From NCBI GenBank assembly GCA_045105615.1, contig JBGCDS010000006.1:3026-67025 (forward strand): DNA of 64,000 bases. The letters are read 5' to 3'. Below, piece by piece: positions 1,361 to 38,898 of this stretch. The stretch comes from Gammaproteobacteria bacterium. GTDB lineage: Bacteria; Pseudomonadota; Gammaproteobacteria; UBA4575. Every line of letters starts with the position of its first letter. Positions within the stretch are counted from its first letter, which is position 1. The translations under genes were made by a program, and so were the position numbers. Under the pieces are notes generated by a model. That model saw nothing but the letters and a program-made list of their open reading frames with translations, was not told the origin of the DNA and searched no databases.

Positions 1361-1378
1361 CGATATTCTTCCTTGATT

Positions 1379-2071: not shown

Positions 2072-2073
2072 TA

Positions 2074-5001: not shown

Positions 5002-5298
5002 TCTACTCTTCAATGAGTAGCATTAACGACTAAAGATTGGATTCCTATACGTATAATATAAACAAATAAGTATCATTTAATATTCTTATACACTAACGCT
5101 GTTCGTTTCCATGACGCCAATTAATCTTGCTAATACCCATATATCCAGAGACTCAATAGATAGAAATTGTTTAAAAAGACACCAGGATAGTGCTTAAATC
5201 ATCTCCCAAATGATTGATTTTCATGATTTTATTGCACTATTCGCGTTTTCCTAAGTCATAATGTAGTGTGACTAAAAGAACAGCAGGAGATTAACTCG

Positions 5299-11432: not shown

Positions 11433-12104
11433 TTATGCAGTTACTTTTCTAAACCCAAATAGCCCTAACAAGCCCATCAGCATCATTGGCAATGCTGCCG
11501 GTAGTGGCACTGGCGCACCAAAACCAGCAATGTAGAAATCCCTACTCGCATTCCCCGCAGAGCCTGGACCACCAAGTCGTATAAATTGAATTGTGCTTTC
11601 GATTACCTGACTCATTAAAGCTGTCGAAACTGAGGCCAGCGCAAAATTTTGAACAGCACCACCATCAATACTCACACCAAAATTCTCTTCAAAAATAGGA
11701 TCATGGTTACCATTGCGGAAATAAATTTCACCAACACGAATTGGGTCACTTATTGTTAACGTAATAGTTTCACCCTGATTAAGAGCGTCTGAATCATTGC
11801 CTGCACAATTATCAACTGCGCAAACACCTAAGCCACCCGGAAGTAGGGTGCCATTATCATTGAAAGGATCATCCAACCATGAAACAACGCCGCCAGAAAC
11901 ATTAACACCTGTTATTGAAATTCCCGGGTTGGATTGACTCATAAAACCCGCTGTCAATTCACCTTCATCCATTTCTGAAACTTGGAAATTAAAAAGTACA
12001 GCGCCATCAGGAATATCGGTACTTGGGTCTGGAGTGATAGTCGCTGCATTTGTAGTGCCAATTACTAACGCTAGTAGCATTAGCGGCATAAATATATTTT
12101 TCAT
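11433..12104 (-). CDS. secreted protein with a C-terminal VPLPA-CTERM (PEP-CTERM variant) exosortase sorting domain
   Basis: Signal peptide. C-terminus GAPVPLPAALPMMLMGLLGLFGFRKVTA = VPLPA motif + TM helix + basic tail. Confidence 0.65.
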   Translation of the reverse strand: MKNIFMPLMLLALVIGTTNAATITPDPSTDIPDGAVLFNFQVSEMDEGELTAGFMSQSNPGISITGVNVSGGVVSWLDDPFNDNGTLLPGGLGVCAVDNCAGNDSDALNQGETITLTISDPIRVGEIYFRNGNHDPIFEENFGVSIDGGAVQNFALASVSTALMSQVIESTIQFIRLGGPGSAGNASRDFYIAGFGAPVPLPAALPMMLMGLLGLFGFRKVTA

Positions 12105-15530: not shown

Positions 15531-16556
15531 CTATCTGTTTGAACTGTTATCTATAAAAGGCTGTATACGTTCTTGGGTAGCTGGATGAGTAGACAGATAA
15601 GAAAACGCATCATCTTCATGATCTTCGCCATGCTCTCCAGTAATTTTTTGCAATATGGTTGCAAAGTGATTGGTATCCATATTATGTGCAAGCATATAGT
15701 CTAACGCATATCTATCTGCTTCCAACTCGAATTTACGCGAATAATTTGTTTCCAATAAAATAATGGGCATAGCTGCTGCAAACCCACTTGTAGAACCAAC
15801 ATCACCAGTCACTGCAGTTAATAATAGAGCAATAGCTGAACTCTGCAAGACTGATCTTAAACCATGTTCATGCACAACATGGCCAATCTCATGTGCAAGC
15901 ACGGATAGCACCTCATCATCATGATCTGCAATGTCTACCAATTCATCAGTCACTATTATATGTCCTGAAGGCAATGCAAATGCATTGGCTCCAACCCCCT
16001 GCCTGAACAACAATTGATAATTATGTTCATCATTAGAGTTCTTTACCATGACAGAAAATTTATTTTGTAACCTTTGTTTAGTCTGCTCATCAAGATCAGA
16101 CGCACTCAATATTCCCTCATCTAATATAGACAAAGTGCCTTCGGTGAGTTTTTCGTCAACGCTAACAGGCAATGCCTGTGCAACTGTTTTCGCCAACGCA
16201 GGAATACCATGCACAATCATGCTCCAAGTAAAGCCAGCGACAATCACTGACGCGAGCAATACATAATGCCAACGAGACTCTAAACCATGTAAGTATTGAC
16301 TGATGACAGAGCGAGAATATTGATCCTCTAATCGATTGATCTCTTGGTGGGCATTCGCTTCGCATTTCGCGCCATTAGGCAGCTGCAAACTTCTGACTGT
16401 ATTGCCCAATTGACCACCAACCTTAAGATCTTGCCAATGACAACTATAAGACACTTCAGAACTGATAAAATTAGCTTTACCATTATCACTAACTACAACA
16501 GTCACTAATTTTCCTACCGGATGAACTCCGTCATAATATGTCGCTTCGAATTTCAT
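15531..16556 (-). CDS. M48 family zinc metallopeptidase with N-terminal extra domain
   Basis: HEIGHVVHEHG (HExxH) and a downstream E..EAD motif. 341 aa. Confidence 0.8.
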   Translation of the reverse strand: MKFEATYYDGVHPVGKLVTVVVSDNGKANFISSEVSYSCHWQDLKVGGQLGNTVRSLQLPNGAKCEANAHQEINRLEDQYSRSVISQYLHGLESRWHYVLLASVIVAGFTWSMIVHGIPALAKTVAQALPVSVDEKLTEGTLSILDEGILSASDLDEQTKQRLQNKFSVMVKNSNDEHNYQLLFRQGVGANAFALPSGHIIVTDELVDIADHDDEVLSVLAHEIGHVVHEHGLRSVLQSSAIALLLTAVTGDVGSTSGFAAAMPIILLETNYSRKFELEADRYALDYMLAHNMDTNHFATILQKITGEHGEDHEDDAFSYLSTHPATQERIQPFIDNSSNR

Positions 16557-16558
16557 TA

Positions 16559-17665
16559 TTACATAGCAATATCAATATCTAGGAAGTCACCCATCTCACT
16601 ACCTACAGTACCTACCTGTTCTTGCTGATTGGCTGTAATAACCTTCAAGTCAGCTAACGATGATACATTTACACTTTCAATGCGATATCTAGCGAGTCTT
16701 ATCTTAGCCCAAGGAATCAATAACCCAACACTCAGTATTATTCCTAGCGTATTAGTTAAATAAATAAATAACATTTTGCCTGTGCCTAGTTTTCCATTAA
16801 ACGCCATCAAAGGCACCGTCTGCGCAGTCAGCACATGCGCAGATGCTTTATTTAGTGAAGTGTTAGACCACACGGTATTAAATACATTTGCCTGCACATA
16901 GGCATACGCAAGATAATAACCCATAAAATAAACAACCGTGGCAAACACTATCGACATTGACGCCATTGAAGGCGTAGCAGAGTTAGCCTCAGGATCAGCA
17001 TTCATCGCACCCATTATAGAAGTCATGCTGGCTCCAGACATTACAACAATGATAACTAGAGTTAGTATCATTATTATCAAACCGATAATATGATATTTAT
17101 AAAATGCTTTTATAGAACTTTTGAAATGAAATATATATTGACCAAATCCGTGGTTGTCTACTCGATACTTTTGTATCGCATGAATTAACCATGGGTAAGC
17201 CAAACCAAGCGTAAGAATCACCAATAGAGTTAAACCAATGAATATTTTCACAGCATCCACCAGATTTCTCTGGAATGAAAAATTTAAATTTCGATATGAC
17301 GTATAGCGTGCATTAAACATCATGCTACGCATCACCAACCAGGGGGTAAGCAGAAAGAACAACGCAAAAAATATAAGATTAGCTAACGGATAAAACTGAG
17401 AAAGAATAGACACTGCCACTAATGCCGATACGACAATAATACGCCCTTTTAATATTGCGATAGGACTTGCAGTATATTCAAAAGGCGAACCATCAAGCAC
17501 TGTATTACCGTAAAAATATTGTTTGTTACGTACTTTAGCCCAAGCAGAATAAATACCTAAAGTAATAATACTGAGCAATATATTTACAATCCAAACACGA
17601 AAGTACTCACCAGCCTTACCGTTGAATTCAAGCGTTACTGGCTTGAGCATTTTATCTTCCATCAT
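16559..17665 (-). CDS. DUF898 (YjgN) family inner-membrane protein
   Basis: F.G.AGEYF.VWIVN.LLSIITLGIYSAWAKVR...YFY.NT.LDG..F.Y signature. 2-bp gap to the M48 gene. Confidence 0.75.
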   Translation of the reverse strand: MMEDKMLKPVTLEFNGKAGEYFRVWIVNILLSIITLGIYSAWAKVRNKQYFYGNTVLDGSPFEYTASPIAILKGRIIVVSALVAVSILSQFYPLANLIFFALFFLLTPWLVMRSMMFNARYTSYRNLNFSFQRNLVDAVKIFIGLTLLVILTLGLAYPWLIHAIQKYRVDNHGFGQYIFHFKSSIKAFYKYHIIGLIIMILTLVIIVVMSGASMTSIMGAMNADPEANSATPSMASMSIVFATVVYFMGYYLAYAYVQANVFNTVWSNTSLNKASAHVLTAQTVPLMAFNGKLGTGKMLFIYLTNTLGIILSVGLLIPWAKIRLARYRIESVNVSSLADLKVITANQQEQVGTVGSEMGDFLDIDIAM

Positions 17666-18837: not shown

Positions 18838-20964
18838 GTGAAAAGAATTATAATATTTTTAGTCATCATTGCCTCGATTATTTTTGGCCTGACCTATTTT
18901 GACATTGGTAGCTATCTCACATTCAGCGAACTGAAAGAGCGCCAATCTGAACTACAGTCACTAGTTAGCAACAACCCATTCAAAGCTGCCGCAATATTCT
19001 TTTCTATCTATGTGATTGCCACCGCCATTTCTGTACCAGGTGCTTTTATATTTACACTCGCTGGCGGCGCACTATTTGGTTTAACTCAAGGTACGATATT
19101 AGTATCATTTGCCTCTACCATTGGCGCATTGTTTGCCTATCTAGTGGCTCGCTACTTTCTGCATGATGTTGTACAAAACAAATTTTCTGACCGACTTGGA
19201 CTAATTAACCGCAAAGTTGATGAAGAAGGCGCATTTTATCTATTATTCCTGCGCTTAGTTCCTGTATTTCCTTTTTTCCTGGTGAACTTGGTAATGGCGT
19301 TAACACCGATTCGCGCATTTACTTTTTATTGGGTCAGCCAACTTGGCATGCTTCCTGCCACATTAATATATGTGAATGCAGGTACGCAAATAGCTAAGAT
19401 CTCTTCACCCGGTGACATTGCCTCACCATCATTAATTTTCGCATTGGTGTTACTTGGTATTTTGCCATTCATCACTAAAGGCATTATGTCTATATTAAAA
19501 AGTAAACGCGTATATAAAAAATTTACAAAACCCACTTCATTTGAATACAACACTATCGTTGTTGGCGGCGGCTCTGCTGGCTTGGTTGCGTCTTACACAA
19601 CTAGCACTCTACAAGGCAAGGTCCTATTAGTTGAGAGACATCAAATGGGTGGTGACTGTCTAAACACTGGATGTGTTCCCTCCAAGTCTATTTTACGCAG
19701 CGCAAAGTTTGTCGCTGATTTAAAAGATTTTGAATCCTATGGTTTATCCAAGGCTAATTACGAGCTTGAATTTAAAAATATCATGTCAAGAGTTCATGAC
19801 AAGATTGCAGTGATAGAGCCAAAAGACTCTGTTGCGCGTTACACAGAGTTAGGTGTTGAGTGTGAACAGGGGGATGCAGCTATCATTTCACCATGGCAAG
19901 TAAAAATTAATGACAAAACATTAAACACCAAAAATATTATCATCGCCACTGGTGCTTCTCCAGCATTGCCTGATATTACAGACCTAGATAAAATTCCTTA
20001 CTATACAACTGACACCGTCTGGTCAATAACTGAGGCGCCTAAAAAATTATTAGTCATTGGCGCTGGGCCCATTGGTTGTGAACTAGGGCAGGCCTTTGCA
20101 CGATTGGGTTCTGATGTTTCTATCGCGAATAATCACGCAACAATCTTACCTAACGAAGATGCTGAAGCAGCCAAGATCGTTGAGGCATCACTATTAAAAG
20201 ACGACATCACACTATTGAATAACTTCAAGTCTGATAAATTCATCAATGACTTCGACAATTACTCTTTAGTTGGTACACAAGACGATTCAATTACCAATAT
20301 CAGCTTTACACACTTATTAATCGCCACTGGTCGAAAAGCAAACATTGAAGGTATGGATGCCCTTGATTTAGAAATTAACGATCAGGGCCGCATAGAAACT
20401 AACGCAACATTACAAACAATGTATCCTAATGTTTATGCCTGCGGCGATGTCACTAGTTCTATGCAGTATACGCATACGGCTTCTCATCAAGCCTGGTATG
20501 CAGCATTCAATGCATTATTTCATCCGATAAAGAAATTTAAGTGCACGCTAAACAATATACCTCGTGCTGTATTCACTGATCCTGAAATCACTAGCGTGGG
20601 TATTACCGAGCAACAAGCGATCGACCAGGGTATAAACCATCAAGTCACTACTTTTCCTATGGATGATATTGATCGCGCAATTACCGATAATGCTACAGCA
20701 GGATTTGTTAAAGTTATCACTCCGGTAAATAGTGATGAAATACTAGGCGTATGCATTGTCGGCGAACATGCTAGCGAATTAATTGCTGAATTTGTACTCG
20801 CCAAAACCAATGGCCTAGGTTTGAATAAAATATTGAAAACAGTACACATCTACCCAACCAGAAGTGAAATCAACCGAATGGTTGCTGGAAAATGGCGTCG
20901 CTCTAAATTAACTGCACGCACTCTTGATATACTAAAAAAATTCCAATCATGGAGACTAGGTTAA
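18838..20964 (+). CDS. fusion protein: N-terminal DedA/TVP38/TMEM64 membrane domain + C-terminal class I pyridine nucleotide-disulfide (flavoprotein disulfide) reductase
   Basis: GTG start. About 230-aa polytopic DedA-like N-terminus. Then GGGSAGL FAD motif, redox-active GGDCLNTGCVPSK (CxxxxC), a second Rossmann GAGPIGCE, and C-terminal HIYPTRSE His-Glu dyad. No MerA-type C-terminal Cys pair. Confidence 0.8.
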   Translation: MKRIIIFLVIIASIIFGLTYFDIGSYLTFSELKERQSELQSLVSNNPFKAAAIFFSIYVIATAISVPGAFIFTLAGGALFGLTQGTILVSFASTIGALFAYLVARYFLHDVVQNKFSDRLGLINRKVDEEGAFYLLFLRLVPVFPFFLVNLVMALTPIRAFTFYWVSQLGMLPATLIYVNAGTQIAKISSPGDIASPSLIFALVLLGILPFITKGIMSILKSKRVYKKFTKPTSFEYNTIVVGGGSAGLVASYTTSTLQGKVLLVERHQMGGDCLNTGCVPSKSILRSAKFVADLKDFESYGLSKANYELEFKNIMSRVHDKIAVIEPKDSVARYTELGVECEQGDAAIISPWQVKINDKTLNTKNIIIATGASPALPDITDLDKIPYYTTDTVWSITEAPKKLLVIGAGPIGCELGQAFARLGSDVSIANNHATILPNEDAEAAKIVEASLLKDDITLLNNFKSDKFINDFDNYSLVGTQDDSITNISFTHLLIATGRKANIEGMDALDLEINDQGRIETNATLQTMYPNVYACGDVTSSMQYTHTASHQAWYAAFNALFHPIKKFKCTLNNIPRAVFTDPEITSVGITEQQAIDQGINHQVTTFPMDDIDRAITDNATAGFVKVITPVNSDEILGVCIVGEHASELIAEFVLAKTNGLGLNKILKTVHIYPTRSEINRMVAGKWRRSKLTARTLDILKKFQSWRLG

Positions 20965-20968
20965 CAAT

Positions 20969-21964
20969 ATGCGCGAAACTAAACATTTGTTATTCCCTGG
21001 CAACTTCCCTGTAATTAAAAGAAGCAATCTAACCACATTACAAGTCAACCTTGGTTACAAGTGCAATCAGTCCTGTACACACTGTCATGTTAATGCTGGG
21101 CCTAATCGCACTGAAATGATGGATGATGCAACGCTAGATTTAATCATCAAATACATCTCTGAAAATAATGTATCGCTACTCGATGTCACTGGCGGCGCAC
21201 CAGAACTTCACCCACGATTTCGCGAGCTAGTCATCGCTGCAAGAAAAGCTGGCGTGACTTTACGTGACCGATGTAATCTAACTATTCTGTTTGAACCTAA
21301 CCAAGAAGATCTGGCACAGTTTTTGGCCGATAATCATGTTGAAATAGTTGCGTCTCTCCCCTGTTACACAGAAGACACTGTCAACAAGCAGCGCGGCAAA
21401 GGTGTATTCACGCTAAGCATTGAAGCTTTACAACAACTAAACACACTTGGCTATGCTACGGACAGCGCACTCAATTTACACTTAGTCTTCAATCCTAGTG
21501 GCCCAGTATTACCACCCTCTCAGGTAGAACTAGAAAAGCAGTACAAGGAACGTCTATTAGAAGATCATAACGTTAGGTTTAATGACCTCTTTGTCATTAC
21601 TAATATGCCTATTCAGCGCTTTGGTAGCAGTCTACTTTCTACTGGCCATTTTGATGGTTATATGGATACCTTACGCGCTAATCACCAAGACGATAATCTT
21701 GACACCGTCATGTGTAGAGACACAGTCAGCATTGACTGGCAGGGTAACGTGTATGACTGCGACTTTAACCAAATGCTAGAAGAACCTGTGTATTCAAAAG
21801 AGAAACAGGCATTACATATACGTGATTTATTTGCTACTAATCTCAGTGATTTATCGATAAAGACTGGCAACCATTGTTTTGGTTGTACTGCCGGCCAGGG
21901 TAGCAGCTGTTCTGGTGCATTATCTGACGCACTATTAGACACAGCCGCCGAATCCGTAAATTAG
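20969..21964 (+). CDS. radical SAM protein with C-terminal Cys-rich domain (ArsS-like, TIGR04167-type)
   Basis: CNQSCTHC (CxxxCxxC) radical SAM cluster motif and C-terminal CFGCTAGQGSSC Cys cluster. 4-bp gap after the upstream gene, GGAG RBS. Confidence 0.7.
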   Translation: MRETKHLLFPGNFPVIKRSNLTTLQVNLGYKCNQSCTHCHVNAGPNRTEMMDDATLDLIIKYISENNVSLLDVTGGAPELHPRFRELVIAARKAGVTLRDRCNLTILFEPNQEDLAQFLADNHVEIVASLPCYTEDTVNKQRGKGVFTLSIEALQQLNTLGYATDSALNLHLVFNPSGPVLPPSQVELEKQYKERLLEDHNVRFNDLFVITNMPIQRFGSSLLSTGHFDGYMDTLRANHQDDNLDTVMCRDTVSIDWQGNVYDCDFNQMLEEPVYSKEKQALHIRDLFATNLSDLSIKTGNHCFGCTAGQGSSCSGALSDALLDTAAESVN

Positions 21965-22051
21965 CATCAACCTTATCTTCTCTAATACACTATATATAGT
22001 ACTTGTGTAGTGTATGTATTCTGCGTGTATAAGGTACAATCACTACTATTC

Positions 22052-23107
22052 ATGAATAAATTAATCAAATATACAGGGATCGTATTATTACTAATCATTA
22101 GTGTTAGTACGCTTTATGCCGCTGGCCCCCCTGCCCGAGTTAAACCTGTTGTGGTTGATACCGCACAACTGCGTGCACTAGCCCCTACTGCAGAATATTC
22201 TGGCACAGTCATCAGTAAAGATGACGCACGCATTTCATCTGAAGTTGAAGGGCGCTTAACCTGGGTTGCTGATGTCGGCACCGTAGTGAAGAAAGGTGAT
22301 GTAGTTGCCAAGCTTGATGATATATTTTTACAACAGCAGCGTTCTGAAGAATCAGCCGTCATCCAAAGCGAACAGGCCAAACTCACTTTATACAATAAAG
22401 AAGTAAAACGATTCCAACGCTTAATCAAACAGAACAGCATTGCCCAAAACGAATTAGACCAATCTATTTCCGATCGTGCTGTTGCCAATAGCAATATTAT
22501 CGCTGCACGTGCAAGGCTCGCTCAAATTGAAGAACGTATTTCACGATCAAACTTGCGCGCACCTTTTGACGGCGTCATAAGCGAACGTTTTGCTCAATCA
22601 GGCGAATGGACACAAAATGGAAATCCTTTAGTCCGTTTAATCAATTTCAATAATCCTGAAATTCAGGTACGCGTACCGCAAAGCATCTATTCGTTAATCG
22701 CGCTTAATAGCATGCTTAAAGTCCGCAACGCAGACCAAACCATTGAAGCCAAAGTTCAAACAATTGTCCCGGTGGGTACAACTGCGTCACGCTTATTTGA
22801 ATTACGCTTAAAACCACAACAACCATTACCACCAGGAATACTAGTACGCATTTCAATTCCAACCGCTAAAGCCCGCGAAGTAGTTTCTATCCATAGAGAT
22901 GCATTAGTTCTTAGAAAAGGTAGCATAAGTGTATTTCGTATTAATGATGAAAACATTTCCGAACAACTTAGCGTAGAGGTCGGCATTGGTGATGGTGATT
23001 ACGTTGAAGTAATTGGCGACATTAATCCTGACGATCGTATCGTCACTAGAGGTGGAGAACGTTTACGCCCTGGTGAGACTGTCAAAATTTCCAATGAGTC
23101 CAACTAA
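22052..23107 (+). CDS. RND efflux periplasmic adaptor (membrane fusion protein)
   Basis: Signal/anchor MNKLIKYTGIVLLLIISVSTLYAAG, coiled-coil and beta-barrel MFP domains. The listed ORF starts at GTG 22010, but ATG 22052 is the likelier start. Confidence 0.8.
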   Translation: MNKLIKYTGIVLLLIISVSTLYAAGPPARVKPVVVDTAQLRALAPTAEYSGTVISKDDARISSEVEGRLTWVADVGTVVKKGDVVAKLDDIFLQQQRSEESAVIQSEQAKLTLYNKEVKRFQRLIKQNSIAQNELDQSISDRAVANSNIIAARARLAQIEERISRSNLRAPFDGVISERFAQSGEWTQNGNPLVRLINFNNPEIQVRVPQSIYSLIALNSMLKVRNADQTIEAKVQTIVPVGTTASRLFELRLKPQQPLPPGILVRISIPTAKAREVVSIHRDALVLRKGSISVFRINDENISEQLSVEVGIGDGDYVEVIGDINPDDRIVTRGGERLRPGETVKISNESN

Positions 23108-26100
23108 ACTTGCACTAAGTAATCCCACTGCAGGCTTAGTGGCTGCATTACTGATTGTATTGTTTGGGTTCTTAGCTTTACGCGCATTACCGATTCAGCT
23201 CACACCTGAAGTTGAACGCCCAGAAATCACCATCACCACGGCTTGGCGCGGATCTGCGCCTGAAGAAGTCGAAGCAGAAATTATTGAACCCCAGGAAGAT
23301 CAGTTACGCGGCTTACCTGGAATGACTGAGCTATTATCAGAAGCCACTCAGGGTTCAGGAAAAATTACTATTTCATTTGATGTAGACTTCAGCCTCGACC
23401 GCGCATTAATCGAAGTCATTAATCGACTCAACCGAGTACCGCAGTACCCCATCGATGCCGACGAACCCATACTTAGCACTGCGGGCGGACGAAGTCGCCC
23501 AATTGCATGGTTCATTATAAAACCTGGTGAAGGCAACCAAACTCAAATAGAAGATTACCGCGATTATATTGAAGAAGTCGTTCAATCACGTTTTGAACGC
23601 GTTGCCGGAGTTGCGCTATCAGAAGTACGCGGTGGTAATGAGCGAGAAGTGCGTATTACAGTTGACCCATACAAAGCAGCAGGCATGGGCATCGATATTA
23701 TTGATGCTGCCAGAACGGTTGGCAATAACGAAGATGTCTCTGGTGGCACTGTCGATGTGGGAAAACGTAGATACATCTTACGCTACACTGGCGCACTAGA
23801 TCCTCAAGACTTACAGAAACTCGTTCTCGAATGGCGCGATGGGCAACCAGTTTATCTACGCGATATTGCAAACGTTACTGTACAGCCAGCTGATCGAGAT
23901 AATTTTGTCATCACTCGCGGAGAACCAGCGATTGCCGTCAATGCTTATCGTGAAGCAGGCGTGAATGTTTTAGAAGTCATGGCAGATCTACAGCAGGCCA
24001 TGTCTGAATTGAAAGCCGGCCCACTACAACGATCCAACTTAACAATAGAACAGGTCTATGATGAAACTGTCTACATAGACAGCGCTATCGAATTATTAAC
24101 TAGCAACCTAGGATTAGGCGTTGTACTCGCGGTGTTTATCCTCTGGTGGTTCCTACGCCGTTTACGAGCAACACTAGTAGTCACTATTACTATCCCGCTA
24201 TGTTTATGCGCTGCCTTCGTTGTCATTCTAGCAGCAGGCAAGTCCATTAACGTTATCTCACTTGCCGCCATGGCATTTGCGGTGGGCATGGTAATGGATG
24301 CCGCCATTATTGTGCTCGAAAATATTGTGCGTCTAAAAGAGAAGGGCGAATCTAATTTTAATGCTGCGCTTAAAGGCACTACCCAAGTCTGGCCAGCTTT
24401 GCTTGCCTCTACCGCCACAACAGTTGCCATTTTTTTACCAGTACTTTTCTTAAAAGATCAAAGCGGGCAACTCTTTGCTGATTTATCTATCGCCATTACC
24501 GCAGCAATCATCGCATCACTATTTGTCGCCACCGTATTGATTCCAGTTGCTAGCATGGTGTGGCTAAAGAAAACAACTTTTGTTGATCATCACAGCAGTA
24601 TTTGGGATTCAATAACTAATAAGATTTCCAACGTTACTCAAACTGGTAAATCGCGCATTGTCATTATTGCGCTACTGATCACCGTGCCAATTGCTAGCTC
24701 AATATTCCTTTTCCCAGATCGTGATTACTTGCCTACAGGTAATCGCAATTTAGTATTTGGTTTTGTCTTACCCCCGCCTGGCGTCAACGTTTCCCATATT
24801 AAAGATGAGATGGGTGATGTAATTGCTGACCGCATTGCACCTTATTTAAGCGGCGAAAAACAACCTAAGATTAAACATTACTTTTTTGTCGCCAGGTCTG
24901 GCTCAATCTTTATTGGTGGGCGCGCAGAAGATCCGAAAAAAGTAAATGAACTCGTCGGCGTACTCAATCAAGTTGTCAGCGGCTTCCCTGACACATTCGC
25001 CATTGTTACAAAAGCATCTTTATTTTCAGGTTTTGGTGCCAATCGAGAAATCGAAGTAAATGTTCAAGGCCAAAACATAGATGCCTTAATAGAAACAGCG
25101 TTAGCAGGTTTCATTGCGATCCCACAAAAACTTCCTGGCGCAAGAGTGCGCCCACGCCCAGGACTAGAATTAGCCGAACCAGAATTACAACTTGCACCGC
25201 TAGATGATCGCTTAAGAGAAGCAGGATGGAATCGAGAAACCCTCGCACAGGTATCCAGAATATTTGGTGATGGCATGCAGGTGGGAGAGTATTTTGATGG
25301 TGATGAACGCCTAGATATATTAGTGCGCATTCCAGAATGGCAAACACCCGAACAGCTAACCGCCATTCCTCTGCATACACCGAATGCTGGTGTCGTTCCA
25401 TTTGGAGAACTAGTGGACATTATCAGAACCGCTGGCCCAAATACTATTCGTCGCTTAGACCGTAGACGCACCATTACGCTAGAAGTCACGCCACCTGAAG
25501 ATGTTCCACTGGAACAGGCGCTAGAAGTCATTCAATCTGAAGTCGCACCCATCATGGAACCATTATTACCCAACGATGGCGTGATTCGTTATGGCGGTTC
25601 CGCAGATAATCTAAAAGTCGCTATTAATAATTTAAGTAGCAGCTTTATTGTTGCACTGATTATCCTATTACTATTAATGGCTGCCTTATTTAGATCTTTC
25701 TTTGACAGCTTATTAGTCATGCTGGCATTACCTCTTGCAACGATAGGCGGAGTTGTTGCGCTTAAGCTGATGGGTTTATCCGCTGATCTGCTGACGTTAA
25801 TAGGATTCATTATTTTACTTGGGCTTGTAGTCAACAATGCAATACTGCTTGTCTACCAGGCACGTAGTTCCGAGCGTGAAGGCCTTGCACGCGCAGAGGC
25901 AATTAAAGATGCTGTACGCACTCGTATCAGACCGATACTCATGAGTACATCTACTACTGTATTTGGAATGTTGCCTTTAATTATATTTGCAGGTGCAGGA
26001 ACAGAACTTTATCGAGGGTTAGCTGCTGTGATTGTTGGCGGCATGATAATGAGCACCTTCTTTACTCTAGTCCTTATTCCTAGTTTACTGCAATTAAAGA

Positions 26101-26132
26101 TAACCTCTAAAGATCACAAACAATCAGCATAA
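23094..26132 (+). CDS. RND family efflux transporter permease (AcrB/HAE-type)
   Basis: About 1010 aa, 12-TM RND architecture. The ATG at 23094 overlaps the MFP stop by 14 nt. Confidence 0.85.
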   Translation: MSPTKLALSNPTAGLVAALLIVLFGFLALRALPIQLTPEVERPEITITTAWRGSAPEEVEAEIIEPQEDQLRGLPGMTELLSEATQGSGKITISFDVDFSLDRALIEVINRLNRVPQYPIDADEPILSTAGGRSRPIAWFIIKPGEGNQTQIEDYRDYIEEVVQSRFERVAGVALSEVRGGNEREVRITVDPYKAAGMGIDIIDAARTVGNNEDVSGGTVDVGKRRYILRYTGALDPQDLQKLVLEWRDGQPVYLRDIANVTVQPADRDNFVITRGEPAIAVNAYREAGVNVLEVMADLQQAMSELKAGPLQRSNLTIEQVYDETVYIDSAIELLTSNLGLGVVLAVFILWWFLRRLRATLVVTITIPLCLCAAFVVILAAGKSINVISLAAMAFAVGMVMDAAIIVLENIVRLKEKGESNFNAALKGTTQVWPALLASTATTVAIFLPVLFLKDQSGQLFADLSIAITAAIIASLFVATVLIPVASMVWLKKTTFVDHHSSIWDSITNKISNVTQTGKSRIVIIALLITVPIASSIFLFPDRDYLPTGNRNLVFGFVLPPPGVNVSHIKDEMGDVIADRIAPYLSGEKQPKIKHYFFVARSGSIFIGGRAEDPKKVNELVGVLNQVVSGFPDTFAIVTKASLFSGFGANREIEVNVQGQNIDALIETALAGFIAIPQKLPGARVRPRPGLELAEPELQLAPLDDRLREAGWNRETLAQVSRIFGDGMQVGEYFDGDERLDILVRIPEWQTPEQLTAIPLHTPNAGVVPFGELVDIIRTAGPNTIRRLDRRRTITLEVTPPEDVPLEQALEVIQSEVAPIMEPLLPNDGVIRYGGSADNLKVAINNLSSSFIVALIILLLLMAALFRSFFDSLLVMLALPLATIGGVVALKLMGLSADLLTLIGFIILLGLVVNNAILLVYQARSSEREGLARAEAIKDAVRTRIRPILMSTSTTVFGMLPLIIFAGAGTELYRGLAAVIVGGMIMSTFFTLVLIPSLLQLKITSKDHKQSA

Positions 26133-26166: not shown

Positions 26167-26571
26167 TTAATAATTTATCGCGCGAGGAAGTTCTTTAGCC
26201 TGCTTCACCCAGTCTTCTACCTGTGATGCAGAAGGAACCTGACGTACTAATTTTTTCTCTTCGTTGACGCTAGCCATTTTCTCATGAAGGTTAGCTGCGT
26301 TACGCTGCGCTAATTCAGGCACGGTATCCACACCAGCACATTCTAGTAAGTCTGCATACTGAGTGCTAACACCTTTAATGCGTGCTAGGTCTGCACGGTT
26401 TACCCAGTTAAGCACTAGCTTTTCACTAATATCACATTTAGTTGCGATCTCTTGGCGACCTTTCTTTTCAGCGCCTGCTTCTAGTAATTTTTCAATTGAA
26501 GATATGCCACCTTCTTCTAATTTTTTTGAATAAACTTCGCCGATACCTTCAATCTCTGCTAACTTTGTCAT
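26167..26571 (-). CDS. DUF4332 (helix-hairpin-helix) domain protein
   Basis: 134 aa. Repeated HhH-like segments (LAEIEGIG, LARIKGVS). Confidence 0.55.
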   Translation of the reverse strand: MTKLAEIEGIGEVYSKKLEEGGISSIEKLLEAGAEKKGRQEIATKCDISEKLVLNWVNRADLARIKGVSTQYADLLECAGVDTVPELAQRNAANLHEKMASVNEEKKLVRQVPSASQVEDWVKQAKELPRAINY

Positions 26572-26699
26572 ATAGACCCCTCATTTAATTAGATTTATTT
26601 AGTTGGGTAAAATTAAAATGTTGAATAAAACTCGCAATGTATGACTTACCTGTTGCGTCATGAGTTCACTTTATTTTTTTACTGTTTTTTAGTCAATCA

Positions 26700-27575
26700 C
26701 TATTTGTCCTTAACTAGCATTTCACGCAAATCATCAAAACGCTTTTTAGCTTTCTCATCCACACGTGGGTAGTGCATATTCAAAGATTCCATCGTTTCAG
26801 CAATTATTTTTGCTACTGTATATCTCATGTATGGCTTGTTATCGGCAGGAATTGAATACCATGGTGCCCACGACCTTGACGTTTCACTTAATGCTTTTTC
26901 ATAGGCTTTCATGTAGTCATCCCAATGACCGCGTTCTTTAATATCAGATTCTGAAAATTTCCAGTTTTTCTCCGGCTCGTCAATACGGCTTAAAAAGCGA
27001 TTGCACTGTTCTTCCTTAGACACGTTCAACCAAAACTTTAATACTACCGTGCCATTATGTGCCAAGTGTTTTTCAAAGCTACGGATAGATTCATAACGTT
27101 GCGACCATATTTCTTTTTCGTTTGGCTTATCTGGTAACTTCTGGAAATTCAAAATCTCAGGATGTACGCGCACCACTAATACTTCTTCATAATAGCTGCG
27201 GTTAAACACTCCAATACGACCGCGTTCCGGCAAGCGTGTTGTCGTTCTCCATAGATAGTCATGATCCAGCTCGTTATCTGATGGCTGCTTAAATGAAAAC
27301 ACCTGACAACCTGCTGGGTTAACGCCTGTTAGCACATGGCGAATTGTGCTGTCTTTTCCTGCTGCATCCATTGCTTGAAAAACTAACAACAAAGAATGAC
27401 AATCATGCGCATACATTATGCGTTGCAAGTCATGAATTTTCTCTGTCTGCTTTTTCAGTTTCTTTTTATATTCTTTATCATCTAACTGCTTTTCATTAAT
27501 ACTAGTGATGACATCTTTGGTTTTAAAAGAACCGTCAAAGGGAACTAAGTATGGGTGATCTATCGCATTAAACAT
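26700..27575 (-). CDS. polyphosphate kinase 2 (PPK2) family polyphosphate:nucleotide phosphotransferase
   Basis: Walker A-like [11 protein letters not shown], lid motifs. 291 aa single PPK2 domain. Confidence 0.85.
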
Positions 27576-27587
27576 TTAACTGTCCTT

Positions 27588-28004
27588 TTATTTAGCTTCA
27601 ACGGTGTTATTACCCTGAGCTATCCAAGCTTTAATTCCGCCTGTTACGTTATAAACACTTTCATAACCATGTTGTTTAATCAAAAAATCCCCAACAACCT
27701 TGCTACGCTTGCCAGTGCGACAAATAATCGCAACCTGTTTGTCTGGAGTAATATATTCTGATGACTGCTGCATCCATACTTGTACATGCGGCTGACCCAT
27801 TCCATCAAAGAACATAATAGGAATGCTACCTTCAACAATCCCTGTTTTTTTCCACTCGCTTGGCGTCCTAACATCAATGACGGTCACTCCTGAAGCCATT
27901 AGCTTTTCAAGGCCCTGCACGTCAACCTCTACCATTTCTGCCGCGTATACTGACTGAAGCATGAATAAAGAAAATACTATCAACCTTGTTTTAATTCCCA
28001 ACAT
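27588..28004 (-). CDS. periplasmic single-domain rhodanese (sulfurtransferase)
   Basis: Signal peptide. Active-site loop CRTGKRS. 138 aa. Confidence 0.8.
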   Translation of the reverse strand: MLGIKTRLIVFSLFMLQSVYAAEMVEVDVQGLEKLMASGVTVIDVRTPSEWKKTGIVEGSIPIMFFDGMGQPHVQVWMQQSSEYITPDKQVAIICRTGKRSKVVGDFLIKQHGYESVYNVTGGIKAWIAQGNNTVEAK

Positions 28005-28041
28005 TATATTGCCTCGTTACATAAAATTTATTATTTCAACA

Positions 28042-28533
28042 TCAACAATTCTTTTCTAAATATAATCGCAATCGATTTTTTTTAGATTCCACTCGACTCT
28101 CATCAATATAAACTCGTTCACCATCTTCATCCAAGTCGTAATATAAAATTCCGCCTTGATTCATATCTGCCAGTTCTGCACCCGCCGAGTTACACTTTGA
28201 AATTAAGTCAGCTCTCTTCTGCTTGACCTTTTCGCGCTTTTCTTTTCGCTCTAGCCTTTCTGACTGCAAGTAGTCTGAGTACTTGCTTTGCCTTTCTTGC
28301 AAACTAGCAGTACTGCTTTTGTTAACACTCGACGAATTTGTTGCGCTATTTTTTAGTTTTACTTTTTCAGCATCTTTATAGGGTGGAAATTGAGAAAATT
28401 GAACACGGCCATTCTCATCATATGTCTTATAAACATTATCAGCTTGTATATAAGTTATACTCAGAAAACAAGAAACAACGAAGCATCTTGCTAGCATCTT
28501 GCTGACTAGCCGCTTATTAAGCTTGCTTAGCAA
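28042..28533 (-). CDS. DUF4124 domain protein
   Basis: N-terminal YKTYDENGRVQFSQFPP motif, then a coiled, charged C-terminus. The 5' end overlaps the gshA 3' end by 17 nt. Confidence 0.55.
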   Translation of the reverse strand: MLSKLNKRLVSKMLARCFVVSCFLSITYIQADNVYKTYDENGRVQFSQFPPYKDAEKVKLKNSATNSSSVNKSSTASLQERQSKYSDYLQSERLERKEKREKVKQKRADLISKCNSAGAELADMNQGGILYYDLDEDGERVYIDESRVESKKNRLRLYLEKNC

Positions 28534-30094
28534 AGTAATCTTCTAAAAATTCTGTGAAATTCTTATTGTCACTTTTCTCTAGCTCTTTTTGTTCTCGCAA
28601 GCTTTCCTCAACTGCTTTTAAAATATCACTTGAAGTCTTCTCACATTTTTCACTAGAAGAATAAAACTGACAGTACTGCTTACCTAGGCTTTCAATATAT
28701 TGGTAATAAGATAAATTATTGTCGCGCATCGCACTCAATATTTTTGCAGAAAATGTTTCTTCTACAGACTCTACACTAGTGTAGAACTGATTGATTGATT
28801 GAACAAACAGATTGTTGCCACTGTTTTTATCCATGCATTCTGCAATTTTCAATAACCCTGCAAATATTTCTCCACACCATTCCTGCAACGAAATGCTTTT
28901 ACCTTTTTTGCGCAGATGCAATTCAGGATTACGCCCATGATGAGATACCTCATGCGCATTGATATCAATTTCTTCTCGTTCTTTACGGTCGATTAAACTG
29001 TCGTCACCCAATAAACAGTAAACAAACAATATTTCAATAAAACGTAACTGTTCGATACTGACACCAAAGGGTGAAAATGGATTTAAATCTAACGAACGTA
29101 TCTCCACGTATTGGACGCCTCGATCCAACAGCGCTTGTGTCGGCTTTTCATTACGACGTGCCACCTGCTTAGGCCGCACTGTACTGTAGTACTCATTTTC
29201 TATTTGCAGAATATTGGCATTCAATTGTCTATATTCACCATTTACCTTCACACCGATTTCCTCGTAAGGAACATAGGGTTTTTCAATTGCGCGGGTTAAA
29301 CAACTCACATAGTCTGGCAGGTTGTCATAACATGCCTTCACACCAATTTCATTTTCACGGTGATTGGTGTAACCGATATCACCTAAGCGTAACGAGGTTG
29401 CATACTCTTCATAGTGCGTGTCTTCATCAAAACGCTGTAAATCTTTAACACCTTGATGGCTAAAACTTTTATCCACCGCGGGAGATGCACCAAACAAGTA
29501 GGGCACCAACCAACCGACACGTTGCAGATTACGTATTAATTTGAAGTACTGTTGATTAACAAAGTCCTGTGAATTGCTTGTATCTCCAAGTGCAGCTTGC
29601 CAGCCTGGCCAAAATTCTTCTGGCATAGATAAATTCACATGTATGCCTGAAATCACCTGCATTACTTTACCGTAGCGATAACCTAAACCACGACGATATA
29701 CATTTTTCATCTGACCTAGGTTGCTAGTGCCGTATTCCGCAATGCGTATACTTTGTTCGCCGTCCAGCTTGCATGGCATGCTTGCCGGCCATAGGCATTC
29801 ATTACCTATGTTTGGATAGACAAACTGATGTATTTGTCCCAAGAATTTGATTGCCTGTTCTGCTGTGTCCAATGGCGGCGTGACGAATTCTAATAATGCT
29901 TCAGAATAGTCTGTGGTGATATGCGGGTGCATCAATGCGGAACCCAGTGCAACAGGATGATCTGTATTGGCAATCACTCCCCGCTTATCAGTGCGTAGAG
30001 ATTCTTTCTCAATGCCAACTTTACCAATATGAAGTGAGGACTCCATATTGTATTTACTGATGAGATTTAGATTGTCTTCGATCGCTTGATACAT
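28517..30094 (-). CDS. gshA: glutamate--cysteine ligase
   Basis: 525 aa, E. coli GshA-like (GSALMHPHITTDYSEALLEFVTPP). Confidence 0.9.
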   Translation of the reverse strand: MYQAIEDNLNLISKYNMESSLHIGKVGIEKESLRTDKRGVIANTDHPVALGSALMHPHITTDYSEALLEFVTPPLDTAEQAIKFLGQIHQFVYPNIGNECLWPASMPCKLDGEQSIRIAEYGTSNLGQMKNVYRRGLGYRYGKVMQVISGIHVNLSMPEEFWPGWQAALGDTSNSQDFVNQQYFKLIRNLQRVGWLVPYLFGASPAVDKSFSHQGVKDLQRFDEDTHYEEYATSLRLGDIGYTNHRENEIGVKACYDNLPDYVSCLTRAIEKPYVPYEEIGVKVNGEYRQLNANILQIENEYYSTVRPKQVARRNEKPTQALLDRGVQYVEIRSLDLNPFSPFGVSIEQLRFIEILFVYCLLGDDSLIDRKEREEIDINAHEVSHHGRNPELHLRKKGKSISLQEWCGEIFAGLLKIAECMDKNSGNNLFVQSINQFYTSVESVEETFSAKILSAMRDNNLSYYQYIESLGKQYCQFYSSSEKCEKTSSDILKAVEESLREQKELEKSDNKNFTEFLEDYFAKQA

Positions 30095-32962: not shown

Positions 32963-33436
32963 ATGCGACTCCTCATTCAAATTAATACAAAGATAGTTTT
33001 TATCTTATTAATGCTTTGGGGAGTTTCACCATTTGCTAATGAGGCGAATACGACTGACAACCAACCCGCGAAAAAATATTATGTGCATGACATTAAAAAT
33101 GCCATGAATGATCACATTGCTAAAAGCATCGATGAGAATGGTGTATTTACCATTGAAGATGATAAAACTGGTGAAATCTTATCTTTAAAATTTGTAAAAA
33201 TTCATGACCCCGTACGCGTCATTGATGGCCGCACCTATTTCGCTTGCACTGACTTTCATGTCATCGGTAACAAAAAGAAACTTTATGACCTAGACTTCTG
33301 GATGAGCCCCGTCGACGGTAAACTAAAAATCTTCAAAGCAAAAATTCACAAAGAACCACGGAAATCCTTAATTTACGGCTGGTATAAACAACCACGCTAT
33401 ACCTTTGTTGACGATAAAATCGTAGAGCTTTACTAA
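32963..33436 (+). CDS. secreted hypothetical protein (157 aa)
   Basis: Signal peptide. 26 nt downstream of the repeat peptide and co-directional with it. Confidence 0.55.
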   Translation: MRLLIQINTKIVFILLMLWGVSPFANEANTTDNQPAKKYYVHDIKNAMNDHIAKSIDENGVFTIEDDKTGEILSLKFVKIHDPVRVIDGRTYFACTDFHVIGNKKKLYDLDFWMSPVDGKLKIFKAKIHKEPRKSLIYGWYKQPRYTFVDDKIVELY

Positions 33437-36703: not shown

Positions 36704-37036
36704 ATGCCTACAATAGATCAGCAGAAAATGCTGTTAGTTATGACCACAATCCCTGACATCGATAAGGGAAAGTTGCTCGCCCGTCAGATAATCGAAGAAC
36801 GACTGGTTGCTTGTTGCAACATAGTGCCTGGAATGACGTCTATTTATCGCTGGAAAGATGAACTGTGTGAAGACCAAGAGTGTCTATTAGTAATGAAAAC
36901 GCTAAAAACCCGGTATACACAGTTAAGTAAGTTTATTCTTCAACAACATCCTTACGACACCCCAGAATTAATCGCCTTACCAATTACACAAAGCACAGAA
37001 GAGTATTTATCATGGGTCACCAAAGAAACCAGTTAA
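36704..37036 (+). CDS. cutA: divalent-cation tolerance protein CutA
   Basis: 110 aa CutA1 fold, adjacent to dsbD as in E. coli. Confidence 0.85.
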   Translation: MPTIDQQKMLLVMTTIPDIDKGKLLARQIIEERLVACCNIVPGMTSIYRWKDELCEDQECLLVMKTLKTRYTQLSKFILQQHPYDTPELIALPITQSTEEYLSWVTKETS

Positions 37037-38898
37037 TTCACCAATCTATTTGGGCAAGTTTATTAGCGCTATTTCTACTATTAAGTGCATCAAGCCAATC
37101 ATTTGCTGCCGGCAACCCCTTTGGGAATAGCAGTGAAGAAGACGAAGAATTCCTGACGGTTGATGAAGCATTTCAATTAACCGCTACCAGCAATTCAGCC
37201 AACGAAATAAAGTTATTTTGGAATGTTGCGGATGAATACTATCTATACAGAAAGCGCCTTAGCGTTAGCAGCAACGATGCCAGCGTAGTAATTGGCGAAT
37301 TAGGTTTGCCGACAGGTAGAAATCTACATGACGAATTTTTTGGTGACGTTGAAATATATGAACATAGCCTAGATGTCAGCGTGCCCATTTCTGCCAACAC
37401 TAATACGGTTGAACTGATAGTTGGATACCAGGGCTGCGCTCATGCTGGCCTATGCTATCCACCGGTGAAAAAGACTATCAACGTGACACTGCCAGGTAAT
37501 GCTGGTGGCTCAGGCACGAACATTGCCAAATCCATGAGTACGGGCGATTCTACCAATACCAAAGCAGCAAAACCGGTCAATGAGCAGGATAGTATTTTAG
37601 ATAATCTTAAAAATGCAAATCCTCTCGTGGCGATTATGCTCAGTTTAGGCTTTGGCCTGCTGGTGGCTTTCACCGCGTGCATGTACCCAATGATTCCAAT
37701 CTTAACATCGTTGATTATGGGACAGGGCGAAAAGATAACCACATTCAGAGCCTTTAGCCTGTCGCTTAGTTACACGCAGGGTATCGCACTTACCTTTGGC
37801 GTGCTTGGCGCAATCATGGCAGTTGTAGGAGAGGCTTTAGGTATTCAAGGCAGCTTACAAACTCCTTGGATTTTGATCCCATCAGCTTTATTATTTATTG
37901 GCTTAGCATTTTCTATGTTCGGCTTTTATGAAATCCAAGTCCCAAGCGCATTACAAAGCAAGCTAAACGAAAAGAGTAACCAGCAGAAAGGTGGCTCTCT
38001 ATTTGGCGTTGGCTTAATGGGTGTATTGTCTGCACTTATTGTTGGTCCATGTGGCGGCCCAGTATTATTAGCTGTGCTTGCATTTGCCGCTCAATCACAA
38101 AGTCCATTGGCTGGATTCTTATACTTATGGGTATTCGGCACTGGCATGGGCTTACCACTCCTCATTATGGGCTCAGGTGGAGGTGCTCTATTGCCTAAAG
38201 CCGGTACCTGGATGGACATTGTTAAAGCCACCGGCGGTGTAATTATGATCGGTTTAGCAATTAGCTTTTTAGAACGTCTTAGCCCAACTTATATACCTAC
38301 CTCCATTATCATGCTGATGTGGGCAGCATTGCTTATTATCGTCGCTGTATATTTAGGCGCTTTAAAATCGTTATCGGACGATTGCAGTGGCTGGAGCAAG
38401 TTATGGAAAGGGCTAGGTTTAATCCTGCTCATCTATGGTGCTATGTTCTTAGTCGGCCTTGCGGCTGGCGGAAAAGACACATTGAAGCCATTGACTGGGG
38501 TTATCTCAAGCGGACAACATGCCACCAGCCAACAACATGTTGCTCATAAACGCATCAAGACAGTGGATGATCTCAATAGTGAATTAACAGCAGCCAAAGC
38601 GGCTGGTAAGCCTGTCATGTTGGATTTTTACGCAGATTGGTGTGCGTATTGCAAAGTCATGGAAAAGAAAGTATTTCCTGATCCCGCAGTCGTTGCCGCT
38701 TTAGACAATGTTGTGTTCTTACAGGCTGACATTACCGTCCAAGATAATGCTGATAAAGAATTAGCGCGTCATTTGGATATGTCTGCTCCACCCATGCTGT
38801 ACTTTTGGGATGCAGATGGCACTGACTTAAGAAGCAGTCGGTTAACCGGGAGTGTCACCGCTGAGCAGTTAGCAGACCATTTAAACACCCTATTTTAA
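37012..38898 (+). CDS. dsbD: thiol:disulfide interchange protein DsbD
   Basis: 628 aa. N-terminal DsbD-alpha domain, central 8-TM domain with CGGP-type Cys, C-terminal thioredoxin-like domain (WCAYC). Confidence 0.9.
   Translation: MGHQRNQLIHQSIWASLLALFLLLSASSQSFAAGNPFGNSSEEDEEFLTVDEAFQLTATSNSANEIKLFWNVADEYYLYRKRLSVSSNDASVVIGELGLPTGRNLHDEFFGDVEIYEHSLDVSVPISANTNTVELIVGYQGCAHAGLCYPPVKKTINVTLPGNAGGSGTNIAKSMSTGDSTNTKAAKPVNEQDSILDNLKNANPLVAIMLSLGFGLLVAFTACMYPMIPILTSLIMGQGEKITTFRAFSLSLSYTQGIALTFGVLGAIMAVVGEALGIQGSLQTPWILIPSALLFIGLAFSMFGFYEIQVPSALQSKLNEKSNQQKGGSLFGVGLMGVLSALIVGPCGGPVLLAVLAFAAQSQSPLAGFLYLWVFGTGMGLPLLIMGSGGGALLPKAGTWMDIVKATGGVIMIGLAISFLERLSPTYIPTSIIMLMWAALLIIVAVYLGALKSLSDDCSGWSKLWKGLGLILLIYGAMFLVGLAAGGKDTLKPLTGVISSGQHATSQQHVAHKRIKTVDDLNSELTAAKAAGKPVMLDFYADWCAYCKVMEKKVFPDPAVVAALDNVVFLQADITVQDNADKELARHLDMSAPPMLYFWDADGTDLRSSRLTGSVTAEQLADHLNTLF

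Follow-up and report, generated by a model that had tools for sequence, protein, structure and literature searches.

Enzymes of the ArsS family are radical S-adenosylmethionine (SAM) proteins which add the 5'-deoxyadenosyl group of SAM to the trivalent arsenical DMAs(III), giving 5'-deoxy-5'-dimethylarsinoyl-adenosine (DDMAA) (PMC13598754). In Synechocystis, the arsS gene is co-transcribed with arsM. The DedA proteins, another large family, are ubiquitous and poorly understood. The association of a DedA/TVP38 domain of the COG0398 type with a PF07992/PF02852 oxidoreductase represents the commonest fusion of that DedA subfamily (Todor et al., mBio 2023, PMC10127716), and was reported with a general tie to aerobic metabolism, and with neither a function nor a link to ArsS or arsenic. 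The present analysis deals with a locus where these two kinds of proteins are encoded side by side, in a stretch of 64,000 nucleotides (hereafter the window) from contig JBGCDS010000006.1 of a gammaproteobacterial assembly (GCA_045105615.1). Four open reading frames (ORFs) of the same strand, extending from 18838 to 26132, successively encode a DedA/VTT–flavoprotein disulfide reductase fusion (18838..20964, + strand; 708 amino acids, with a GTG start that is an ATG at the same codon in relatives), a radical SAM (rSAM) protein of the ArsS family (20969..21964, + strand; 331 amino acids), a membrane fusion protein (MFP) acting as periplasmic adaptor, and a permease of the resistance-nodulation-division (RND) type.

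All these components belong to known families, and the locus represents a known, largely uncharacterised type of cluster in a reduced form flanked by a pump. The link between the fusion and the ArsS-family gene is robust: it is conserved, and it usually occurs inside a neighbourhood labelled by NCBI as arsenosugar biosynthesis, which comprises ArsS, the glycosyltransferase TIGR04283 and the transferase TIGR04282, with or without ArsM. The rSAM and the fusion of the window are orthologous to members of this neighbourhood in many beta- and gammaproteobacteria, whereas the window and its lineage keep the rSAM and the fusion only, the other partners being absent from the 64 kb. In this respect, the locus seems to be a pared-down form of the ArsS/TIGR04283/TIGR04282 neighbourhood, which is widespread. 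We tentatively favour, with a confidence that stays somewhat short of even, the idea that its core is a two-gene module in which the ArsS-family rSAM and a membrane-tethered MerA-like reductase serve organoarsenical metabolism. A preliminary description of the same DNA had presented the four genes as an undescribed membrane redox and export system. No paper in which DedA or mercuric reductase is connected with ArsS, TIGR04167 or DUF3641 was found in a literature search outside which many subscription journals lay, and the fusion–ArsS association keeps its novelty to that extent; the system as such is a reduced form of a neighbourhood that already bears an NCBI label.

The ArsS-family enzyme and its genomic partners

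The rSAM protein of the window matches the TIGR04167 ArsS equivalog model with 438.5 bits (cutoff 300) over the full length of the model (2-303/303), and its C-terminal Cys-rich domain matches DUF3641 (PF12345) with 180 bits. The CX3CX2C motif CNQSCTHC (21062..21085, + strand) corresponds to the radical SAM cluster site, and the C-terminal motif HCFGCTAGQGSSC (21872..21910, + strand) contains the GxxC/U site. At this site C314, encoded by TGT, is a cysteine, in a position occupied by selenocysteine in some family members, the GxxU motif being listed for TIGR04167 (PMC13188914). The preliminary description had correctly recognized this ArsS-like architecture and had advised looking for selenocysteine in the Cys-rich tails; none of the 80 rSAM homologues has an in-frame TGA at the GxxC/U motif. 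The window rSAM retains every invariant cysteine of the family and shares 55-56% identity with two Cyanobium homologues (L040, L069), whose loci are too short to reveal the gene context. Judged from its sequence, it is an ArsS-family enzyme, and the adenosylation of DMAs(III), which is established for the family, is a putative activity for this member. Like the Synechocystis ArsS, it passes the equivalog hidden Markov model (HMM) and possesses both the CX3CX2C motif and a DUF3641 domain with its GxxC/U site. Unlike it, it has no adjoining arsM, stands between the fusion on its 5' side and an RND pump on its 3' side, and has neither TIGR04282 nor TIGR04283 in the window. The statement of the preliminary description that no ArsM gene or ars operon is adjacent was borne out over 10 kb and, as far as ArsM is concerned, over the whole window, where no ArsM-family match was found. 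In the rSAM of a Burkholderiales metagenome-assembled genome (MAG; L070:10001-10936), the conserved ...GQGSSCGGAL ending is lost and reads GQGVELRRGA..., probably because the reading frame shifts, or the assembly is faulty, close to the 3' end.

The distribution of the partners was investigated in a sample centred on the rSAM, for which 19 aligned rSAM homologues were used to scan one genome per species. The window proteins and the families most common among the neighbours were sought in each of the 80 loci returned, and partners were counted at a distance of 10 kb or less in the 54 loci that are well flanked, i.e., with 5 kb or more on either side. The fusion, or an adjacent pair of DedA and pyridine-nucleotide disulfide oxidoreductase (PNDR) genes, accompanies the rSAM in 29 of these 54 loci (54%). 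The TIGR04283 glycosyltransferase occurs in 47/54 and the TIGR04282 (DUF2064) transferase in 45/54. The 5'-methylthioadenosine phosphorylase MTAP (8/54), an ArsM-family methyltransferase (7/54) and an RND pump (1/54) are much rarer. By chance, a single-copy gene would be expected within 10 kb in less than about 1% of the loci. Loci combining the fusion and the rSAM span the Burkholderiales, Rhodocyclales, Competibacteraceae, Microbulbifer and marine gammaproteobacteria, and the fusion is located downstream, upstream or divergently with respect to the rSAM, or is separated from it by one gene of an unnamed family of ~350 amino acids (c5). The preliminary description had named, as an outcome that would refute it, a pairing unique to one strain together with an rSAM routinely found without the fusion. 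The pairing is far from strain-unique, since it was found across several orders, in various gene orders and even unfused, but roughly half of the rSAM loci have no fusion.

Unfused arrangements take two forms. In L044:7001-8931, separate PNDR and DedA genes stand in the reverse order and adjoin both a DUF547 gene and the rSAM, and in L018:2534-3952 and L051:8509-9954 a stand-alone PNDR abuts the rSAM. The three PNDRs have in common the GGDC...GCVPSK and H-x-Y-P-[TS] motifs, with a Gln replacing the Glu at the end of the latter.

Three uncharacterised families travel together with the fusion. Across the 80 rSAM loci, the fusion is present in all 13 loci that contain DUF547, in 13 of the 15 that contain DUF3047, and in 11 of the 15 that contain the ~350-amino acid family. 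Both DUF547 and DUF3047 proteins possess a signal peptide, associated in DUF547 with a CxxxxC motif (NCASIGC), and the ~350-amino acid family has no Pfam or NCBIfam match. Representatives of these families are scattered over loci L002-L079, with examples at L037:15660-16502, L004:16350-17081 and L042:10881-11957.

A second sample, centred on the fusion, consists of 80 metagenome loci retrieved by an alignment query led by a distant alphaproteobacterial member. A TIGR04167-type rSAM occurs in 25 of them, at least one of rSAM, TIGR04283, TIGR04282, ArsM and MTAP in 43, and at least one partner in 57 once DUF547, DUF3047 and the ~350-amino acid family are included. In four loci (L092:6473-9813, L126:9998-13292, L095 and L106), an ArsM-family methyltransferase is encoded directly 3' of the fusion, and no rSAM occurs in the available DNA; the best matches of these methyltransferases are all ArsM models, every one under its cutoff. 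ArsM and ArsS both act on trivalent arsenicals, and these ArsM-only pairings therefore point to a step common to the two enzymes. The idea of metalloid handling put forward in the preliminary description fits such surroundings, in which the fusion sits with ArsM-family, MTAP, TIGR04282 and TIGR04283 genes. A variant cluster faces the fusion in a Neptuniibacter sp. (L083:10109-14337, ERZ25071824), with a TIGR04283-like glycosyltransferase, a PNP/MTAP-like phosphorylase, a 303-amino acid rSAM, an ArsM-family methyltransferase and a DUF2064/TIGR04282 protein. Its rSAM is devoid of DUF3641, scores 53 bits on TIGR04167 and has its best match, under the cutoff, in the Rv1681 family, so that a different rSAM appears to fill the ArsS slot.

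That the fusion and the rSAM are neighbours by coincidence, without a functional link, is very improbable in view of these distributions. A co-localisation in 54% of the well-flanked rSAM loci, observed in several orders and arrangements including unfused ones, lies far above chance, and the constant or nearly constant presence of the fusion with DUF547 (13/13) and DUF3047 (13/15) argues in the same direction. Coincidence would nevertheless agree with the housekeeping nature of the window surroundings, with a literature that regards the fusion as a trait of COG0398 DedA proteins in general (PMC10127716), and with the fusions lacking any recognisable partner, namely in Emcibacter (L085) and in 10 of the 33 well-flanked fusion loci from metagenomes. 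Owing to these partnerless loci, the link is to be regarded as strong and not as obligatory; taken together with the rSAM loci devoid of fusion, they suggest that the fusion may have a broader role.

The fusion protein and its candidate function

Residues ~1-232 of the fusion form a polytopic DedA/VTT membrane domain (18838..19533, + strand), and residues ~233-708 a class-I FAD/NAD(P)H-dependent PNDR. The Pfam scores amount to 78.2 bits for VTT_dom/DedA (PF09335; gathering score 33.9, residues 70-183), 184 for Pyr_redox_2 and 107 for Pyr_redox_dim, in agreement with the complete class-I reductase fused to DedA that the preliminary description had announced. Membership of the DedA/VTT family is indicated by the PF09335 score above gathering together with the polytopic helical region, the placement in the COG0398 subfamily being taken from the literature; the DedA domain alone found no match in NCBIfam. 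Among the aligned homologues, R105, R139 and N150 of this domain are invariant and no cysteine is conserved. A DsbD-like electron relay from the fusion to the periplasmic DUF547 protein was dropped because of this lack of conserved cysteines. In the AlphaFold2 (AF2) model (pLDDT 85, pTM 0.78), the N-terminal domain is all-helical and the body resembles lipoamide dehydrogenase (LipDH) and MerA; the top Foldseek matches of the model are the lipoamide dehydrogenase 6uzi and the MerA 5x1y. The domain architecture is that of the COG0398 fusions described earlier (PMC10127716), to which the link with the ArsS neighbourhood is added here. A protein 100% identical to the fusion (P0121, 'FAD-dependent oxidoreductase') occurs in a gammaproteobacterial MAG at NCBI, and also in two marine-type read assemblies.

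The redox-active motif GGDCLNTGCVPSK (19648..19686, + strand) contains the CxxxxC pair C274 and C279. The Asp which precedes its first Cys (GGDC) is a signature of the subfamily, LipDH and MerA having GGTC. In the HIYPTRSE motif (20845..20868, + strand), Tyr672 stands where disulfide reductases have their catalytic His, and Glu677 is retained. The His-Glu dyad of the preliminary description has thus to be abandoned: in residue-level alignments, Tyr672 faces the catalytic His in the lipoamide dehydrogenase 2eq6 ('hpHptlsE') and a Tyr in the MerA 5x1y ('apYltmaE'). Tyr672, C274, C279 and the Asp of GGDCLNTGCVPSK are invariant in 69 fusion homologues. The C-terminus (...KKFQSWRLG) has no Cys pair, as already noticed in the preliminary description, and the tail is free of Cys in all 69 homologues, W686 being invariant and W705 nearly so.

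The fusion reaches the cutoff of no named NCBIfam model: it scores too low for MerA (TIGR02053, 344.3 bits for a cutoff of 454.45) and lipoamide dehydrogenase (TIGR01350, 372.5 bits for a cutoff of 408.8), and far too low for glutathione reductase, mycothione reductase and RclA. The Tyr672 at the His position and these sub-cutoff scores set the fusion apart from dihydrolipoyl dehydrogenases and glutathione-type reductases. The best match by sequence among solved structures is the MerA 5x1y. With MerA (5x1y, 1zk7), the fusion shares the class-I FAD/NAD(P)H fold, the CxxxxC motif and the Tyr that replaces the catalytic His ahead of a conserved Glu. It differs by the absence of both the NmerA domain and the C-terminal Cys-Cys pair through which Hg(II) reaches the MerA active site, by GGDC instead of GGTC, by its sub-cutoff MerA score, by the N-terminal DedA domain and by the Trp-containing C-terminal tail. 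At the end of the second Rossmann β-2 strand (fusion residues ~424-441, in the 19900-20100 region of the window), the fusion reads VSIANNHATILPNED; at this position most relatives have an Arg (V-T-I-V-x-R-x-x-R-I-L) and the Burkholderiales members have V-T-Q-V-E. To judge from these residues, the preference for the nicotinamide cofactor may differ between the fusion clades.

A Tyr-type, MerA-like site of this kind would be better suited to a soft metal or metalloid as substrate than to plain disulfide exchange. According to the mechanism proposed for the two-gene module, the cytoplasmic PNDR half would take up electrons from NAD(P)H and pass them, by way of FAD, to the dithiol of C274 and C279, which would hold a soft metalloid substrate in a trivalent, thiol-bound state, e.g., by converting dimethylarsenate to DMAs(III); alternatively, its task might consist in the re-reduction of the Cys/Sec sites of partner enzymes. 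The DedA half would be the membrane anchor of the reductase, with the binding or translocation of an anionic or lipid-linked arsenical as a possible further role. ArsS would then adenosylate DMAs(III) to DDMAA, as expected from the chemistry of the family. Since the methyltransferase and the downstream transferases are missing from the neighbourhood in the marine lineage, the module would there make use of exogenous methylated arsenic, or the partner genes would sit elsewhere in the genome. A role as reductase seems the most economical because the fusion pairs alone with ArsS here and with ArsM-family proteins elsewhere, both of which use trivalent arsenicals.

Various observations weigh against this arsenic-centred module. 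We know of no reductase required by ArsS and, to our knowledge, the 'arsenosugar' label of TIGR04282 and TIGR04283 was deduced from gene neighbourhoods and not from experiments. Both the substrate of the PNDR half and the role of the DedA half are wholly inferred. The partnerless fusions and the rSAM loci without fusion count here as well. An ArsM-family gene or MTAP occurs near the rSAM in 13-15% of the rSAM-centred loci only, and the methyltransferases of the clusters score under the cutoffs of all ArsM models. In the window, ArsM, TIGR04283, TIGR04282, MTAP, DUF547 and DUF3047 gave no match with tblastn and with partner HMMs built from the 80 loci, the rSAM HMM used as a positive control reaching 611 bits. 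Moreover, the ArsS reaction is redox-neutral (PMC13598754).

The same module might thus act on another substrate, an adenosyl- or ribosyl-derived membrane compound such as a lipid-linked sugar or an analogue containing sulfur or selenium, the names 'ArsS' and 'arsenosugar' having been over-extended from one characterised cyanobacterial enzyme. This alternative is rather unlikely, albeit the most serious one. It would account for the ~85% of rSAM loci in which both transferases but no ArsM-family gene occur within 10 kb, and for the absence of any arsenic gene among those found in the window; DedA proteins have been tied to the flipping of lipids and polyprenyl phosphates (PMC10127716), TIGR04283 weakly resembles polyprenyl-phosphate glycosyltransferases, and the TIGR04167 family can include selenoproteins (PMC13188914). 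Nevertheless, the rSAM of the window exceeds by far the ArsS equivalog cutoff and is close to its cyanobacterial counterparts at the identity given above, ArsM-family methyltransferases and MTAP recur in these clusters and directly beside the fusion, and the Tyr-type MerA-like site suits a metalloid. The organoarsenical module remains, on balance, the preferred proposal.

The RND pump and the surroundings of the locus

Downstream of the rSAM, an AT-rich spacer of 87 nucleotides (21965..22051, + strand) precedes the gene of the RND periplasmic adaptor (22052..23107, + strand; 351 amino acids, ATG start), which matches TIGR01730 with 191.6 bits. The RND permease (23094..26132, + strand; 1012 amino acids, ATG start) matches ACR_tran with 630 bits, a generic HAE-type match, reaches 557 bits on NF033617 for a cutoff of 1250, and stays under every specific cutoff; the closest models are the generic RND_permease_2 and a generic RND adaptor. 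The four co-directional genes with minimal spacing occur as the preliminary description had it, with 4 nucleotides between the fusion and the rSAM and a 14-nucleotide overlap between the MFP and RND genes, the second gap amounting to 87 nucleotides instead of the 88 given there. The adaptor and permease genes with their 14-nucleotide overlap display the typical arrangement of tripartite RND efflux systems, from which the locus differs by a pump under all named-pump cutoffs and by the lack of an adjacent outer-membrane factor, which may be encoded elsewhere, as TolC. No ars gene or outer-membrane factor occurs within 10 kb of the cluster, nor among the larger ORFs scanned in the window, in accordance with the preliminary description.

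That description had further linked the fusion, the rSAM and the RND pump in a partnership, of which the first two terms alone recur (29/54). An RND gene lies 3' of the rSAM in 1/80 rSAM-centred loci, the sole case (L001) being the nearest relative of the window, and adjoins the fusion in 1/80 fusion-centred loci, the sole case outside the lineage of the window (L127). In the latter, a high-GC metagenome contig (L127:7229-16833), the genes 3' of the fusion encode an MdtABC-like set composed of one adaptor and two RND permeases and a metallo-beta-lactamase-fold protein, and no rSAM is present. Within the lineage, the block consisting of the FAA-hydrolase gene (- strand) and of the fusion, rSAM, MFP and RND genes is kept at a fusion identity of 53-65%. 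The genes that follow vary, with DUF4332/PPK2 in some relatives and rhodanese/GshA directly in others, and the FAA-hydrolase and MatE genes upstream are as well conserved as the block. The spacer between the rSAM and MFP genes measures about 76-125 nucleotides in relatives and is not conserved in sequence. TIGR04283 and TIGR04282 are absent from the window and from the lineage relatives L001 and L086-L090.

A four-gene system, with a toxic or membrane-associated substrate that would be modified by the fusion and the rSAM and then exported by a dedicated MFP–RND pair, is an unlikely explanation of this block. The common strand, the gaps of 4, 87 and -14 nucleotides, the absence of a terminator-like site in the spacer, the persistence of the block at 53-65% fusion identity while the downstream genes differ, and the second, unrelated association of a fusion with an MFP and two RND genes in L127 would be in keeping with it. 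However, the adjacency of an RND gene in one locus out of 80 in each sample is no more than expected for a multi-copy family, an unconserved spacer always parts the rSAM from the MFP, and the pump matches generic multidrug models only and has no adjacent outer-membrane factor. Synteny by descent is adequate to explain the presence of the pump, because the block is conserved together with its flanking housekeeping genes, the FAA-hydrolase and MatE genes upstream among them. The pump is best described as a lineage-specific neighbour that might serve as an exporter. Less likely still is the most ambitious proposal, according to which the fusion would be a dedicated membrane organoarsenical reductase/translocase and would form in abundant marine gammaproteobacteria, together with ArsS and the RND pump, a self-contained pathway for the uptake of dimethylarsenate from seawater, its reduction and adenosylation, and the export of the product.

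No regulatory feature was recognized around these genes. Rfam and tRNA scans of the window revealed no riboswitch or other RNA element upstream of the cluster, no conserved element emerged when the two intergenic regions were aligned over five relatives of the lineage, and a promoter and terminator scan found no consensus promoter and no terminator in the 87-nucleotide spacer.

The remaining genes of the window are housekeeping genes, such as those of GroEL, DsbD, AccBC, PrmA, GshA and PPK2, among others. Thiol-metabolism genes are located near the locus, within 26167-30094 (- strand) and 37012-38898 (+ strand), and encode a rhodanese (27588-28004, - strand), the glutamate-cysteine ligase GshA (28517-30094, - strand) and DsbD (37012-38898, + strand). 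The rhodanese and GshA genes stand directly 3' of the RND gene in L086, L088 and L090, and this clustering may be mere synteny. A molybdoenzyme trio (422-5013, - strand) consists of a 979-amino acid molybdopterin oxidoreductase, a 4Fe-4S subunit and a DmsC-type anchor; its best model is the thiosulfate reductase PhsA (220 bits for a cutoff of 694), ArrA, Ynf and Ttr being weaker, and the set is syntenic in the relatives L088 and L090. A conserved pair of genes for DUF898 and an M48-peptidase/DUF7092 protein (15531-17665, - strand), located between the MatE and FAA-hydrolase genes, is kept in L086 and L089 and missing from L088 and L090. Three ORFs have no Pfam family, namely 11433-12104 (- strand, 223 amino acids), 32963-33436 (+ strand, 157 amino acids) and 28042-28533 (- strand, 163 amino acids). 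The first two gave no match in the scans made, and the position of the third is occupied in L081 by a shorter gene product of 151 amino acids with no precomputed family.

Significance of the association

The recurrent linkage with ArsS, ArsM-family proteins and the transferases represents a first functional lead for the DedA–reductase fusion, in the form of a hypothesis that can be tested in culture. In addition, the proteobacterial 'arsenosugar' neighbourhood is seen to contain further conserved and uncharacterised members, i.e., the fusion itself, the periplasmic DUF547 protein, DUF3047 and the ~350-amino acid family, and planktonic marine gammaproteobacteria retain a reduced form of it with two genes. 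Should the self-contained pathway exist, it would add to the marine arsenic cycle a new branch requiring neither ArsM nor glycosyltransferases. If the link to arsenic is false, the association would be a warning that the ArsS and arsenosugar names propagated by annotation pipelines are over-extended; if it is true, it would bear on which organisms make or transform organoarsenicals in the ocean.

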